Shown here: positions 24,039 through 34,877 of the stretch, one piece after another
Layout: each line of letters begins with the position of its first letter
Position numbering within the stretch: the first letter of the stretch is position 1
Sequence record: PV357171.2
Source of the DNA: a phage
Reading direction: 5' to 3' (one strand)
DNA length: 64,000 bases
Notes under the pieces: model-generated
Told to the model about the DNA's origin: nothing
The model's database searches: none
The model's input: the letters and a program-made list of their open reading frames with translations, nothing else
Program-made: the position numbers and the translations under genes

Positions 24039-24532
24039 AATTTTATTCTAAGTCTAGGAATTTCAGGCTCCTCTTGATGGACTTGATAAATAACAGGGCT
24101 ATTATTTACCAGAATATAGCTTATATAAGCTGGAACATAGGATAATACAAATGGATAAGGGACTTTAGCCACATAGCATTGGTATTTTCCGTTATAAATT
24201 CTAGCTGAATGCAAAACTTTAGAGGTGACAACATCATAGAACGTAGTTTTCTTCCAGTTAATAAGATTTCCATCAGAATCTATAAATTGGCTACGCTTTG
24301 ACCCAACTAATTGAGACAACATTGATATTCTGCCCCTAATAGGATAGAGCTTGTAGGGTAATTCCTTCCGTTTCTCAAATAGAATAAGCCTACGTTGAGA
24401 AAACGTGCCAGGCAACTTCCTGTTATCTAGCACATATTTATTATACCTTGTTGTAATTACGGAATAATCACCTTCTTGCTCAATTGATACAAACGCCCGT
24501 AAAGCATATACGGGCAATTTGAAATCAAGCAC
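24035..24532 (-). CDS. hypothetical protein
   Basis: 165-aa ORF translationally coupled between polymerase and helicase genes. Confidence 0.4.
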   Translation of the reverse strand: MLDFKLPVYALRAFVSIEQEGDYSVITTRYNKYVLDNRKLPGTFSQRRLILFEKRKELPYKLYPIRGRISMLSQLVGSKRSQFIDSDGNLINWKKTTFYDVVTSKVLHSARIYNGKYQCYVAKVPYPFVLSYVPAYISYILVNNSPVIYQVHQEEPEIPRLRIKL

Positions 24533-27092
24533 CGAGAATCCTTCTCACGTTATCCAAATCTTTACATACAGCAATAAACTTATCATCCTTGTATTTGCTA
24601 TGATCTGGATGCTCTTTATCCATTGCAGCTAGTTTCTTATACTCGAATTCTGCATCAAGTAATACACCCTTGACATAACGAGTATATTCATCATCATCAA
24701 TACAAGCGATTGATGGATGCTGCTTCTTCATCTTACCACAGGAGTAGTCACGAGAACCTCCAGCCTCAGAATCAGAATCAATACCAATCGGACAGCCAGG
24801 AATACTGATACCACGGTCTTTCTGAATATTACGAATCAGGATTTCATTGTATTGGTCGATCAAATCCTCACGAACAATAGCAACTACGGAGTCATGAACC
24901 AGCATAACAATCTTCATCTCGTGTTCTAAGCCAAGAGAAATGATCTCATTATCTGCATCTACAGCACCTAAAAGGAGACTATCAGAAGAAGCAGACTGAA
25001 TGATTGCGTTAAATCCAGAACGAATTTCTTCACCCTGAACGCCACGGTCTTCGGAGTGGATATTATGCAGACGACGTTTACGACCAAAGTGACTATAGAT
25101 AAATCCATGATTCTTGATCTGATCGTGGCACTTATCAATCCAACGCTTAAGCTGTGGGAATTGACCAAAGTAAGTCTCAATGTACTCTTTAGCATCTGCA
25201 ACAGTACATTCAACAAACGGTTCCCCCGTTTTGGCTGCTTGTTCGAGCAATGCTTCGTTAACAGAATGTGCTACTTTAGCCGGGCCAGAACCGTACAAAA
25301 TACCAAAGGTAATTGCCTTAGCTGCCTGACGCAGAGCTGGGAACAGCTTCTTAACATCACGAGGTTCACATTGCAATTTAAATACCATGTGGGCGATGTT
25401 AGAGTGGAAGTCAGGGTATTTATCAGGTTCATTTCTCATGTTGATAAATACTTGTTGCATATTTCTATCACCAGATAGAACAGCAGCATAATAAACTTCC
25501 GCAGTTGTTAAGTCCCATGCGATTACACGGTATCCAGGTGGTGCAACTACACAACCCTTAATGATAGATTCATCACGAGGTAACTGTTGCAGGTTCAGTT
25601 TACCAGAAGAACTCAGACGACCAGAAGTAGTCATATGCTCATGGAAGCCAGTACGAATGCAACCATCAGCATCAATGCTCAGAAGAATCTTCTCAACGTA
25701 AGTAGAGATCAGCTTAGTCAGCTTACGAATCTCTAGTAGGGTCTTAGCAATTGGATGCTGCGTAGACAATTCGTTCAGAGCTTCTGCATCTGTAGAGTCC
25801 GCTCCAGTATCTGTCAATTTACCTGTTGGAGTTAACCCAACATAATCAAACAGAAGAACACGTAGCTGCTTAACAGAGTTTGGGTTAAACGCTTCGTTCT
25901 GGTCTTTCTCTAGCTGAACGACTTCTGGATAAGTATACAGTTTCTCACGAGCTTTATTCAGATTATGGGTTAACTGGTACTGAGCTTCTTTTAAACGATC
26001 AATAGAAATAGGTACACCACGATCCTCAACACGTTGCAGGAACACGCAACCAGGCATTAGAACATCATAATACAGACTGCAAAGTTTTTCATTCTTCTCA
26101 ATTTTTGGTAAGAAGAAGTTGTGCAAACGTATGGTGGCATCGGTATCTTTTGCAGCGTAAGGCCACATAATATCAAACGGAATTAAATCATAGGTGAAAT
26201 CTTCTTTCTTGATTTTATGTGCTTTGCAATAATCCTCCTTGAACTTATCTAGTTCAAAATCATAGTCACCCATATCGGTATACTTCATTGCTAGAGATTT
26301 CAAGCCATGAGTACCACGACGCTCATCTAGAACATAATGCTGCAACATTGTATCATGGAGCCTGCGTTCTTTATGTGCTTTATCAAAAGTAAGTCCCAGA
26401 TGGTACTTATAAAAGTGCATATCAAACTTCAGGTTGTGAAAAACAATAGTGTGGTTTTCACTATCCAGAATTTTCTGGAGATAATATACTGCAACCTCTG
26501 TGAGACAATCAGAATCGATATATACACCCTGATATTCTTGGTGAGACATAGAAACACCAAGCAGATAACCATCTCGACAGTATAGTGCTGAGGTTTCGGA
26601 GTCAAATGCTACAGGTCCGATAACCATATTATACACCATCTTGATATATTCTTCCGCCTCGTCAGGGTCAGTAATAGGACGGTAATCACCAGCTTTTGCA
26701 ATCTTCTCACGACCATTGATAATATCGTGGATATTCTCTACTGTTGCATCGAAAACTGGTTTCATTTCAGGTTTAAAGTGTAACTGGGCTGGGCTGATGC
26801 TCGCAATCCAGTTAGCATATCCATTATGCTCTACACGTTTACCAGTATAGTCACCAATGCCTTTCTTACCAGCAAAGTACAGGAAAGGTTCGGCACCTAC
26901 CAGTATAACAAAATCATAATCATTCGGATCAAATGGGTTTTCCGGAGTCCCGATAGTAATATGCTTTTTGAGCAAACGACCGGATAACTTCTCATTACAC
27001 ATATGGAATACATCAACTTCCTCGCCGTATAGCTGGAAATGTTTATCGTAACGAGTGTTATTTAGAGCTTTATCAACTACTGCGATTTTCAA
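24525..27092 (-). CDS. DNA polymerase, family A, with 3'-5' exonuclease domain (855 aa)
   Basis: Exo I motif FDSETSAL, polymerase motif B (K...FGILYGSG) and motif C (VHDS); start codon is TTG at 27092 preceded by GAGGA. Confidence 0.9.
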   Translation of the reverse strand: MKIAVVDKALNNTRYDKHFQLYGEEVDVFHMCNEKLSGRLLKKHITIGTPENPFDPNDYDFVILVGAEPFLYFAGKKGIGDYTGKRVEHNGYANWIASISPAQLHFKPEMKPVFDATVENIHDIINGREKIAKAGDYRPITDPDEAEEYIKMVYNMVIGPVAFDSETSALYCRDGYLLGVSMSHQEYQGVYIDSDCLTEVAVYYLQKILDSENHTIVFHNLKFDMHFYKYHLGLTFDKAHKERRLHDTMLQHYVLDERRGTHGLKSLAMKYTDMGDYDFELDKFKEDYCKAHKIKKEDFTYDLIPFDIMWPYAAKDTDATIRLHNFFLPKIEKNEKLCSLYYDVLMPGCVFLQRVEDRGVPISIDRLKEAQYQLTHNLNKAREKLYTYPEVVQLEKDQNEAFNPNSVKQLRVLLFDYVGLTPTGKLTDTGADSTDAEALNELSTQHPIAKTLLEIRKLTKLISTYVEKILLSIDADGCIRTGFHEHMTTSGRLSSSGKLNLQQLPRDESIIKGCVVAPPGYRVIAWDLTTAEVYYAAVLSGDRNMQQVFINMRNEPDKYPDFHSNIAHMVFKLQCEPRDVKKLFPALRQAAKAITFGILYGSGPAKVAHSVNEALLEQAAKTGEPFVECTVADAKEYIETYFGQFPQLKRWIDKCHDQIKNHGFIYSHFGRKRRLHNIHSEDRGVQGEEIRSGFNAIIQSASSDSLLLGAVDADNEIISLGLEHEMKIVMLVHDSVVAIVREDLIDQYNEILIRNIQKDRGISIPGCPIGIDSDSEAGGSRDYSCGKMKKQHPSIACIDDDEYTRYVKGVLLDAEFEYKKLAAMDKEHPDHSKYKDDKFIAVCKDLDNVRRILGA

Positions 27093-27153
27093 ATTTAATC
27101 TCCTCTTGGTAAGTAAGTATAACTTCAGTGTTTCTTCTCTAACTTACCAATAT

Positions 27154-27183
27154 ATTATACCAAATCTTTAAGCGATTCAGCAA
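27154..27183 (-). promoter_or_regulatory. early promoter upstream of DNA polymerase gene
   Basis: Reverse complement TTGCTGAAT, 18 bp, TATAATATATT. Confidence 0.65.
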
Positions 27184-28045
27184 CTAAAATTTCAATACGT
27201 TTTGCTAACATATCAATTTCATCTTTGTTTAAATCACCCGGATCTTTGCCTTCGGGCAGAAGAAAGTTAGCAACTACAGGTGTTAAACGCGTTTTTGTAC
27301 GAATTAACTTGGCCAATGCTTGTGCAGCTTTATTACCAGAAGCATCATTATCTAGTAAGATAACAACAACTTTTACACCGGCAATAATATAAGGACTGAA
27401 CTTATCTGCAATGTTATCCGAAGTAAACTGATGTGTACCAAAGCAGCAAGAAGCATAGTCTATACCATTATCCTCTAGGTTCAGCATATCAAAGATACCT
27501 TCAACTAGAATAAGAACTGGAGTATTATATCGTACAGGGAAAATCGGTGGTGAAACTTGTTTTGGTTTTACTAAGTATTTAGGAGGGGCAGAACTGTTTA
27601 TAGAACGACCCAAAAATAGGATATTGCGTCCAACAGCATCTGTGATTGGGAATACAATTCTGCCTTCCCAGTCTGCTTGATGTTGGAAAGCAAAATATTT
27701 CTTCAAGGTCTTAGAACTTATACCTCGGAAATCACCTTCGAAAAGGCAAGCAGATTCAGGAATTGCAAGATTCGTTGATCCATTCCTAATCTCTGAAATC
27801 TTTTTACGTACTTGCGATAGTCTTGGGGACTGTCGGTACTGAGTCTCATTAAAATAATGGTAAATGCTCGGTATACCTTTACCGAAGCCACAACTCAAGC
27901 AGTGCATAATACCTGTTTCAGGATCAATACGCAAACTTGGGTGTTTATCGTCATGATCTGGATTGAGACAACAGATGAGGATGTCCCCACCTGTGTCTTT
28001 ATATTCAATGCCTTTCAGATCAAGTAGTTCTGTTATTCTACTCAT
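27155..28045 (-). CDS. DNA primase (DnaG-like zinc-binding and Toprim domains)
   Basis: CxxH...C..C zinc ribbon (CLNPDHDDKHPS...HCLSCG) and Toprim EGxxD (LVEGIFDM). Confidence 0.75.
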   Translation of the reverse strand: MSRITELLDLKGIEYKDTGGDILICCLNPDHDDKHPSLRIDPETGIMHCLSCGFGKGIPSIYHYFNETQYRQSPRLSQVRKKISEIRNGSTNLAIPESACLFEGDFRGISSKTLKKYFAFQHQADWEGRIVFPITDAVGRNILFLGRSINSSAPPKYLVKPKQVSPPIFPVRYNTPVLILVEGIFDMLNLEDNGIDYASCCFGTHQFTSDNIADKFSPYIIAGVKVVVILLDNDASGNKAAQALAKLIRTKTRLTPVVANFLLPEGKDPGDLNKDEIDMLAKRIEILVAESLKDLV

Positions 28046-29565
28046 ATATCGCTGGCCTGTTCACCTGTTGAATTTTCAGCTTTGTCTTTCTTAGCACGTT
28101 TAGGTTGAGCCGGCTTATCCTTCTCAATAGGGATAACGAACTCAGCTTCCATTTGAGATATATCTTCCATTGCTAGGTTGGTAGTGTTATCCATCTGCAG
28201 GGTTTCCCAGTTCATCTTAGGCATAAACTTCACGCTATCAGAAGAACGGGTCTTAACGAAGTCAAACATAATAGCACCTTGACCATTATCAGCTTTTGCA
28301 GCATTAAGATTAGCAGCCATGTCTGCGGAATCAAGAATCCCCTTTGACATACGTGTTCTACCATCTTGATCGATCTGGTAAGGAGCTACTCCAGCCACGT
28401 TATGTTTCTGGCAGATGGATTTGAAAGATGAACTAACAACCATCTGTTCTTTCCAGTCATACATATCAATGGTCTTTGAATCTGGAAGTCTTGTTTGGTT
28501 AATATAGTCTAGAAGAGCTACAGTAACCTTATCACCATATTTAGCAACTAGTTTATTTAATTCTACGTCAACCGTCGTAATAGACAGTTCAGGATCGTAA
28601 ACGATGATCATAGGAGTGTGAAGCTCATAGCCTTCAAGGAGTTTACTTTCCATATCATAGAAGTCACTCATTTTAGCCATAGTGTATTGCTTAACGAAGT
28701 TATCGAAAAGCTCTTCACCACCATTAAACATTCTAGCCCTAGTTCTGGCTAATCTCAACAGAGCAGCACCTTCAAGAGTGTTATTACGCATTGCTAATGC
28801 AGATACTCCAGCTAACATAGCCAGATTACGTCTAAACACTTCGTGCTCTTTCATCTCAATTGAGAAATATGGAGCAATGTCTCCATTCAAATATTGCTGA
28901 ACCTGTATGTTTGAACAGATAATGGATTTACCAGTACCACGCCAACCACCAAGCAGTAACGTTTCTGTGCGAGCTAAACCAATTTGAGCGTCGAACTCAT
29001 TACAAATACCAAGAGCGATTAAGTTCAGTTTGGTATCTTCTTCTCTCTGGAAAATACGCATTGTGTCTGCGTTGAATACCTTTCCAGTATTCGTTACTTT
29101 CTCTTCTAATTTTAAGTGAAGGGAGGCAACTCGGTTGAGAATTTCTCCCTGATCCAGCATTGTTAAATCTTGAAGCACGTCTGTTTCTAGAAGCTTCAGG
29201 AATAAATCCTGTGTATATTCGGCCTCTAGGACTTCAAGTGCCTGTTCCATGCTAACTTCTGGAATTTGAGTGTTAGCTAAAACGACTAGAGCTTGAGAAA
29301 GGCGGGCGTTCCTATTAGCCTCAAGCATCAGTGCGTCAATGGATGGCATTGTGTTATATTTTTTATAATAATTCTGGACGGCTTGGTAAATTGAGGAGAA
29401 AGCGTCATTAAAATGATCTTTATGCAGTTTTGAGAATGTTTCCAATGCTATTTGCTTCTGTTCGGAAGCTAGAAGCATCTTCAACACTACAGCTTGCACG
29501 TTAAACAAGGTCATTCTCCTTTGCACGCTTTCGTGCCTTCTAAATGCAAAAAGGGGAAGGAGCAT
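28042..29565 (-). CDS. replicative DNA helicase (DnaB-like RecA-fold ATPase)
   Basis: Walker A GGWRGTGKS and Walker B-like hydrophobic-D motif; position beside primase. Confidence 0.6.
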   Translation of the reverse strand: MLLPLFAFRRHESVQRRMTLFNVQAVVLKMLLASEQKQIALETFSKLHKDHFNDAFSSIYQAVQNYYKKYNTMPSIDALMLEANRNARLSQALVVLANTQIPEVSMEQALEVLEAEYTQDLFLKLLETDVLQDLTMLDQGEILNRVASLHLKLEEKVTNTGKVFNADTMRIFQREEDTKLNLIALGICNEFDAQIGLARTETLLLGGWRGTGKSIICSNIQVQQYLNGDIAPYFSIEMKEHEVFRRNLAMLAGVSALAMRNNTLEGAALLRLARTRARMFNGGEELFDNFVKQYTMAKMSDFYDMESKLLEGYELHTPMIIVYDPELSITTVDVELNKLVAKYGDKVTVALLDYINQTRLPDSKTIDMYDWKEQMVVSSSFKSICQKHNVAGVAPYQIDQDGRTRMSKGILDSADMAANLNAAKADNGQGAIMFDFVKTRSSDSVKFMPKMNWETLQMDNTTNLAMEDISQMEAEFVIPIEKDKPAQPKRAKKDKAENSTGEQASDI

Positions 29566-34848: not shown

Positions 34849-34877
34849 ATTATACAGAAAAATTTTCCTGAAAGCAA
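34849..34877 (-). promoter_or_regulatory. early promoter
   Basis: Reverse complement TTGCTT, 17 bp, TATAATAGATTCATAAATTTGAGAGAGGAG. Confidence 0.6.

Follow-up and report, generated by a model that had tools for sequence, protein, structure and literature searches.

The window, by which we mean the whole stretch analysed here (64,000 nucleotides of sequence record PV357171.2), comes from a T5-like phage. Since the 62-nt spacer between its primase and DNA polymerase genes is identical to that of phage T5 (NC_005859), the findings concern the T5 pri-pol junction. A 501-nt query across this junction matched 545 phage records, the top one being Escherichia phage phiP4 (99.6%). The genes nearby are all on the minus strand, and the final codons of the primase gene contain both the -35 and the -10 element of the early promoter Ppol. 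On that strand the order is TTGCTG (-35), 18 nt, TGGTATAAT, ATA, TTGGTAAGT, 27 nt, ACTTACCAA, GAGGAG, ATTAAAT, TTG. The individual features are as follows.

27155..28045, minus strand: DNA primase gene (296 aa, DnaG-type; Toprim, CHC2 zinc finger)
27178..27183, minus strand: -35 hexamer TTGCTG of the early promoter Ppol, matching TTGCT(T/A) of T5-type early promoters
27154..27162, minus strand: extended -10 TGGTATAAT, with the hexamer TATAAT at 27159..27154; identical in T5
27155..27157, minus strand: TAA stop codon of primase, lying within the -10 hexamer
27149..27153, minus strand: discriminator ATATT, a T5 early promoter signature; the 5' arm begins with its final two T
27147..27148, minus strand: putative transcription start GG, from the promoter alignment and the RefSeq block (+1 at 27147)
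27142..27150, minus strand: 5' arm TTGGTAAGT of the repeat; given the putative start, GGTAAGT or GTAAGT alone would be transcribed from Ppol
27115..27141, minus strand: 27-nt "loop", itself partly paired in the predicted fold (helix 2, helix 3, apical loop)
27136..27134 with 27117..27115, minus strand: helix 2, AAG with CTT
27132..27130 with 27123..27121, minus strand: helix 3, AAC with GTT
27129..27124, minus strand: apical loop ACTGAA
27106..27114, minus strand: 3' arm ACTTACCAA; its changes in relatives are A to G and give U.G wobble
27100..27105, minus strand: Shine-Dalgarno (SD) sequence GAGGAG, directly 3' of the stem; unpaired in predicted folds of the leader alone
27090..27092, minus strand: TTG start codon of DNA polymerase, as annotated in RefSeq for T5 and S114
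24525..27092, minus strand: DNA polymerase gene (855 aa, family A with 3'-5' exonuclease; PF00476, PF01612)

The locus is the known Ppol promoter together with the annotated TTG start of T5, and the present work is a modest refinement of a well-annotated locus. One difference from T5 lies upstream: a comparison of positions 28042-29565 with T5 (L001:9615-10148) revealed that hegJ (T5.120, an HNH endonuclease gene between the D6 helicase and primase genes in T5) is missing from the window, where a 507-aa helicase ORF directly adjoins primase.

The TTG start codon and the promoter Ppol

An earlier, sequence-only reading of this DNA had the polymerase begin with TTG, eight nucleotides after GAGGA, and both points held: the 855-aa ORF begins with TTG at 27092..27090, and GAGGAG lies at 27105..27100. 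The start is sound because it is annotated in RefSeq, because residues 1-30 of the polymerase are conserved and other genera have ATG at the homologous position, because all 28 of the T5-type IMG/VR loci (28/28) have TTG, and because it is the sole TTG among 25 neighbouring T5 CDS. The ribosome-binding site (RBS), gaggagattaaatTTG, is otherwise a standard T5 early one, such as gagaggagttaaatATG. Database annotations of the start vary: RefSeq starts the polymerase of DaisyDussoix at Met31 (L136:1086) and those of T5 (L001:11098) and S114 at the TTG, and M24354 (1989) gives 829 aa from a downstream ATG. The tblastn alignment of M24354 requires two pieces, which suggests a frameshift in that record. 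An upstream ORF or N-terminal extension through the leader, (C/U)UG AAG UUA UAC UUA CUU ACC, was rejected by sequence inspection as not conserved. This frame, whose start codon is CUG or UUG, shares the reading frame of the polymerase in T5 and Slocum; in Sugarlandvirus and PR1 a UAA closes it ahead of the SD, and in Novosibvirus it lies in another frame.

The TTGCT-type -35, the TATAAT and the ATATT of T5 early promoters are all present upstream of the polymerase gene, and TTGCTG-18-TGGTATAAT-ATATT is identical to T5. A promoter is annotated here in the T5 and S114 RefSeq records, and the -35, 18 nt from the -10, lies within the T5 feature. According to Klimuk et al. 2020 (PMC7472727), the ATATT discriminator occurs in all T5 early promoters, and primer extension on T5-infected cells revealed early "Ppol" transcripts that were present at 20 min and gone after 30 min. 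By inference, the element in the window is the Ppol of that paper. A literature search for a mapped polymerase N-terminus or for T5 transcript 5' ends returned only this paper.

Two lines of evidence bear on the transcription start. The promoter blocks of the T5 RefSeq record were calibrated on PN25, whose +1 is known from the literature; they span -55..+20, which would put +1 at the second G of TTGG, 27147. When some 20 further T5-type promoters of the window are aligned with this one, they point to the same nucleotide. The early consensus reads TATAAT-ATATT-(C/T)A(+1)TAAATTTGAGAGAGGAG, also seen as TATAAT-ATATT-cA(+1)TAAATT, the polymerase promoter reads TATAAT-ATATT-GGTAAGTTAGAGAAGAAAC, and GGTAAGTT in the 5' arm aligns with the initial transcribed sequence CATAAATT of the consensus. 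From annotation and consensus we infer that Ppol starts at G 27148 or 27147, inside the 5' arm. The alignment makes the 5' arm the discriminator and initial transcribed sequence of Ppol, covering the end of the former and the putative start site. With +1 inside the arm, a Ppol transcript would have GGUAAGU or GUAAGU only, and all 9 bp would form only in read-through RNA from the primase operon.

Thus the sequence-only reading, which had placed the repeat in the leader between the promoter and the RBS, does not stand on this point: 3 nt separate the -10 hexamer (27159..27154) from the start of the 5' arm. The same alignment opens the possibility, in our view rather unlikely, that the repeat is incidental and its pairing functionless, with conservation due to the discriminator and initial transcribed sequence (promoter escape), to the RBS and to some further sequence-level constraint. 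The promoter consensus does fully explain the 5' arm; further evidence on this reading, for and against, is given below.

The other T5 early promoters, PN25 and PN26 among them, share the TTGCT-like -35, TATAAT and ATATT, with (C/T)ATAAATT.GAGAG as initial transcribed sequence. Their typical leaders are 15-34 nt long with the SD within the conserved region; the polymerase leader differs in having about 30 extra nucleotides, which hold the 3' arm and a second, functional SD. Within the window, about 20 early promoters have the form TTGCT(T/A)-17-TATAAT-ATATT with the near-invariant transcribed start (C/T)ATAAATT(T/G)(G/A)AGAGAGGA, for example at 34854(-), 42496(-), 55302(+), 60749(+) and 22679(-); this start contains an SD and, at +2..+7, a -10-like TAAATT. 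A second promoter from the conserved TATACT of the loop was rejected by inspection, as there is no usable -35 and relatives have TTTACT or TGTACT. Inspection of the opposite strand of the leader revealed no second promoter.

Predicted folding of the leader

The repeat itself is as the sequence-only reading described it: on the minus strand, TTGGTAAGT (27150..27142) is perfectly complementary over 9 bp to ACTTACCAA (27114..27106), with 27 nt between, and the 3' arm directly contacts GAGGAG. By itself, the repeat is only marginally beyond chance. There are 27 perfect inverted repeats of this class (9 bp or longer, loops of 3-40 nt) in the window, compared with 11.5 +/- 4 in Markov simulations, and that so many are expected per window favors an incidental repeat. 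In the folding models, the repeat is part of an imperfect stem-loop predicted to fill almost the whole 5' UTR, a 55-nt leader; besides the outer stem it has a 5-nt bulge, two inner helices of 3 bp each and an apical loop of 6 nt. Modelled on RNA started at Ppol, the stem has 6-7 bp and ends 2-3 nt before a free, strong SD.

Minimum free energy (MFE) z-scores depend on the RNA that is folded. The 58-nt RNA with both full arms gave z = -2.7, the 55-nt RNA from the putative +1 gave -0.18, and longer contexts of 86 and 146 nt gave -1.0 and -0.06; from the MFE structure of one 98-nt context the 6-bp stem is absent. These largely unremarkable scores again favor an incidental repeat. Pair probabilities for the stem in a 118-nt model of the mRNA were ~1.0 with +1 at 27148 (7 pairs) and 0.72 with +1 at 27147 (6 pairs), and the first four nucleotides of the Ppol RNA were paired with P = 0.95. 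In read-through RNA the probabilities were 0.64-1.0, and one predicted fold has an outer helix, AUUUGGU/AUUAAAU, that is AU-rich and confined to such RNA.

The strength of the full stem in read-through RNA only (0.64-1.0, z = -2.7) raises a further alternative, namely that the hairpin acts on read-through RNA from the primase operon, as a processing or stability boundary or as a damper of translation, and derives perhaps from a terminator of the type found in Vibrio phages. We consider this reading quite unlikely. In its favor, a search of 26500..28500 for rho-independent terminators found no terminator-like site, so that nothing of this kind separates primase from polymerase. The 3' arm is followed by GAGGAGATTAAAT, without a U-tract, as in the other T5-type leaders, which speaks against a terminator-derived role. 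It also counts against this reading that the modelled opening energy of the RBS, 5.3-5.7 kcal/mol, is the same in Ppol-started and read-through RNA. For the same reason, occlusion or insulation of the SD by the hairpin was rejected.

The leader element occurs as a single copy in the 64-kb window. Searches with Rfam 15 gave no match at the gathering score; the best overlapping model, SpR08, scored 15.6 bits against a required 80 (E = 7.9).

Conservation of the leader among relatives

The feature is credible through its conservation and not through the repeat itself. We compared leader identity with identity at fourfold-degenerate sites in the first 300 polymerase codons, with the T5-type sequence as reference.

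Epseptimavirus-type (L021): fourfold sites 67%; leader 59/61, 45-nt hairpin unchanged
Sugarlandvirus: fourfold sites 42%; leader 80%
Providencia PR1: fourfold sites 48%; leader 76%
Proteus Stubb: fourfold sites 45%; leader 65%

In the phage collection, 150 records were at least 99% identical over the 73-nt leader, compared with one over 501 nt that include the coding flanks. The polymerase leader is under strong purifying selection. Promoter function alone is insufficient to account for this, since positions +21 to +44 lie beyond the footprint of the open complex and yet are as conserved as the promoter, an observation that also argues against an incidental repeat.

Among 28 T5-type loci, the arms are identical in 26; the outermost pair is broken in one, and in another an A to G change gives U.G. 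In Sugarlandvirus, where the start is ATG, the arms are TTGGGTAAGT and GCTTACCTAA, with an extra G.U pair and one U.G. Those of PR1, whose polymerase probably starts with TTG, are TTTTGTAAGT and ACTTACCTAA; six inner pairs are retained and the two outer ones mismatched. Serratia phage Slocum has ATTCA-GGTAAGT/ACTTGCC-ATAGGAG; one of its seven pairs is a U.G, the outer pairs are absent, and the polymerase starts with ATG. Novosibvirus (Proteus Stubb and Proteus phage 1) has GTTGGAT/ATCCAAC, a different sequence at the same place, also with an ATG start. As three stem-bearing genera (Sugarlandvirus, Slocum, Novosibvirus) use ATG, TTG and hairpin are uncoupled.

The transcribed pairs GGTAAGT/ACTTACC are kept in Markadamsvirinae, Sugarlandvirus, PR1 and Slocum with changes that are all U.G-compatible, and every non-Watson-Crick pair within the stem is G.U on the sense strand. 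Upstream of the putative start, Slocum lacks the pairs, PR1 has mismatches in them, and in L005 they are broken. The pairs that persist are thus those downstream of this start, and the upstream ones are dispensable. The latter are the pairs specific to read-through RNA; their conservation is the lowest (none in Slocum, mismatches in PR1), which weighs against a role in such RNA. An incidental repeat is difficult to reconcile with a 3' arm whose complementarity survives three A-to-G changes or with the Novosibvirus stem of other sequence at the same place, although the PR1 stem is weak (z = +0.42), as that reading would have it.

RNAalifold predicted the extended hairpin with its two inner 3-bp helices. 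The innermost of these, helix 3, changes from C-G to U-A in PR1 and Novosibvirus, and neither the apical A.UGA nor the AG of the bulge varies in five genera. In an alignment of eight sequences, 95.2% of cells can pair, compared with 87.8 +/- 1.5 in shuffles (0/500) and 27-42% in slid controls; the covariation score is 0.332 against 0.194 (0/500 shuffles). Four pairs are changed on both sides, which is not significant (57/500), and without Novosibvirus the covariation is not significant (141/500). This last result is what would be expected of an incidental repeat, covariation among the close genera being at chance level. Sequence comparison thus indicates a stem that five genera have kept, in part by wobble and some compensatory changes; the covariation, coming from about five independent lineages, is supportive, not decisive.

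A covariance model of the leader found one copy each in the window, T5 and DaisyDussoix. It gave no match in Pectobacterium phage My1, in a further relative (L031), in Vibrio or Aeromonas relatives or in the leader of T4 gene 43. My1 and L031 carry another leader, and VCPH and D441 have a promoter with a short one. The polymerases of My1 (L026:1140-1200) and L031 (1140-1200) are 78-79% identical to that of T5, and their leaders, unrelated to that of T5, share AAGCCCUGAUAGGCA, flanked by differing outer complements (AUCUG/CAGGU vs UGUG/CACA). Among about 70 IMG/VR contigs with polymerases of 37-48% identity, primase-polymerase overlap or a short unstructured leader is the rule, and these contigs are uninformative about the hairpin; in most marine relatives the two genes overlap. 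A metagenome scan for the loop invariants AGNAGNAANANTGANNTTNTACT found at least 120 stretches; among the matches listed, three were real polymerase leaders, none of them new, and the pattern is too degenerate for collecting stem variants.

In DaisyDussoix, a 109-aa ORF follows primase, and the polymerase has its own copy of the promoter, TTGCTA-17-TGATATAAT-ATATT, with an identical leader. That promoter and leader are intact despite this insertion indicates that promoter and hairpin travel as one module. The promoter at the primase end of DaisyDussoix (L136:547-935) drives the insert, the polymerase promoter copy has a different upstream half, and the same hypothetical ORF is inserted in SESL, SB9 and SA001. 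Some records came up under unexpected names: PP355768.1 (L130; Klebsiella phage vB_Kpn_AM_K6, 261 kb, filed under Straboviridae) has a junction identical to that of Sugarlandvirus (Demerecviridae), which suggests two phage genomes in one assembly, and records labelled as Corynebacterium, Listeria and Campylobacter phages also contain T5-like sequence.

The Vibrio relatives bear on the read-through role once more. In pVp-1 (L036:1093-1165) and JSF12 (L127:295-350) the junction holds a rho-independent terminator, a 13-bp stem with a U-tract that starts 3 nt after the -10 (z = -4.4 and -3.2). Both stems follow a promoter with a good extended -10 (TTGCAA-17-TGATATAAT in pVp-1), and they are completely different from each other. 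These terminators hold the same position relative to the extended -10, with the stem 3 nt after TATAAT, as does the T5 element. Stems start 2-4 nt after the -10 in the lineages examined, with the exception of Slocum, where the stem starts at the putative +1; both observations favor a role in read-through RNA. The Vibrio stems differ in having 13 bp, in being GC-richer and in being followed by a U-tract and a leader of ~40 nt before the polymerase ATG, whereas T5-type stems have no U-tract and adjoin the SD; nor does the covariance model link the Vibrio hairpins to the T5 element. If transcription began about 7 nt past the -10 in the Vibrio phages, the bottom 3-4 pairs, those adjoining the U-tract, would be missing, so that RNA from upstream might terminate there while locally started RNA escapes.

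Possible roles of the leader and known systems

The reading toward which we lean, tentatively, is that a cis-acting, structured leader at the 5' terminus, together with the weak TTG, sets the stability or the translation of the polymerase mRNA. As the 5' arm coincides with the discriminator and initial transcribed sequence of Ppol, its transcripts would begin with the stem and have no unpaired 5' nucleotide. A paired 5' end slows 5'-end-dependent decay in E. coli, and a base-paired terminus on an unusually long leader could in this way protect the polymerase message. The stem-loop may also fix the geometry of the RBS without occluding the SD, and the conserved weak TTG would lower translation independently of the stem, so that the two would jointly set polymerase dosage.

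When the 24 T5-type promoters of the window were compared, clearly paired 5' ends were predicted at Ppol and a PN26-like promoter only; at a third (38849-) the RNA is paired only from the second nucleotide. Both promoters with paired ends have long leaders (55 nt for Ppol, 51 nt for the PN26-like promoter), and the usual leaders of 15-34 nt have free 5' ends, with the SD within about 18 nt of the end. The PN26-type transcript (window 33840(-); T5 L001:4069-4143) has a 5'-terminal hairpin of its own, AUAGUU-UGAAAG-AACUAU, at the head of a 51-nt leader. Against a 5'-terminal stem, no more than 4-5 pairs would remain in Novosibvirus with the likeliest start there (the G eight positions past the -10), and the thermodynamic stability of the 6-bp stem is low (z = -0.18 for the 55-nt RNA).

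The invariant apical loop and bulge fit a bound factor better than a simple protective hairpin, since such a hairpin needs no conserved loop sequence. The element could thus be an operator for some other factor acting in trans, whether a phage or host protein or an RNA that binds the RNA loop, or a DNA-binding regulator that recognises the half-sites on either side of the start and contributes to shutting off Ppol; we regard this as distinctly unlikely. Besides the invariant unpaired positions, the conservation of the leader as a whole exceeds what a plain stem would need, the repeat flanks the start site, and the Ppol transcripts seen at 20 min are gone after 30 min according to PMC7472727. 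However, the window offers neither a candidate factor nor a second copy of the site. For a DNA operator, half-sites 36 bp apart centre to centre would be unusual, and the departures of the stem from Watson-Crick pairing, all G.T on the sense strand, fit pairing in RNA rather than a DNA palindrome.

The sequence-only reading had proposed translational control by analogy with T4. A conserved, structured, gene-specific leader and a conserved TTG make some post-transcriptional tuning of the polymerase plausible, and to that extent the proposal survives; neither the SD nor the start codon is sequestered, though, and TTG and hairpin are uncoupled. The analogy itself is unsupported. T4 gp43 binds the gene 43 operator and represses its own translation through it. 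By extension, the T5 polymerase would bind the leader stem-loop and SD and repress its own translation, with the weak TTG easing shut-off, which we consider very unlikely. Several features would suit it: the layout, with a -10 element, a hairpin near the 5' end and then an SD, resembles that of gene 43; the element is unique to the polymerase leader within the 64 kb; the loop nucleotides do not vary across five genera, as a protein contact would lead one to expect; and the 3' arm adjoins the SD. Yet the polymerases are unrelated (BLASTP E = 0.32), T4 gp43 being of family B (PF00136 and PF03104) and the window polymerase of family A (PF00476 and PF01612), three stem-bearing genera do without TTG, and a literature search on T5 polymerase initiation and T5 transcription, not aimed at autoregulation, returned no report of such control.

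The geometry differs as well. The T4 leader reads TATAAT-8 nt-AGCCU[8 nt]GGGCU-7 nt-AAGGA-7 nt-AUG. Like the T5 element, the operator of T4 and RB69 is a hairpin in the polymerase leader, after the -10, before the SD and specific to the polymerase, but there a 5-bp stem closes an 8-nt loop at a distance of 7 nt from the SD, and in T5 a 9-bp stem encloses 27 nt and adjoins the SD. Only the layout is alike, and the covariance model does not recognize the T4 leader. A T4-type gp43 operator was accordingly rejected, as the family B repressor and the short hairpin are both absent. Autorepression by a family A T5 polymerase, evolved independently of the family B system of T4 and RB69 and conserved across five genera of Demerecviridae, would be a separate matter, and is to our mind highly improbable.

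T5 polymerase is an enzyme in wide use, and promoters from T5 serve as standard tools. In the literature on T5 polymerase and transcription, we found no description of the control of polymerase expression or of a conserved leader hairpin. A conserved structured leader on one gene, along with a conserved weak start on a consensus early RBS, points to control of replicase dosage. If the stem protects the 5' end, it would offer a compact natural element with which to adjust mRNA lifetime behind T5 promoters; binding of the leader by the polymerase, if it occurs, would represent convergent autoregulation in an unrelated polymerase family.

For the cis-acting leader that we tentatively prefer, the nearest known counterparts are 5'-terminal stem-loops such as that of the ompA 5' UTR, which, as Emory, Bouvet and Belasco reportedly found in 1992, stabilise E. 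coli mRNAs. As in ompA-type leaders, the T5 stem would begin at the putative 5' end or within one nucleotide of it, provided that +1 is G 27148 or 27147, and the RBS is free and the leader long. The T5 leader differs from them in that its stem is weak and AU-rich, its interior is large and partly structured, and the sequence of its loop is conserved.
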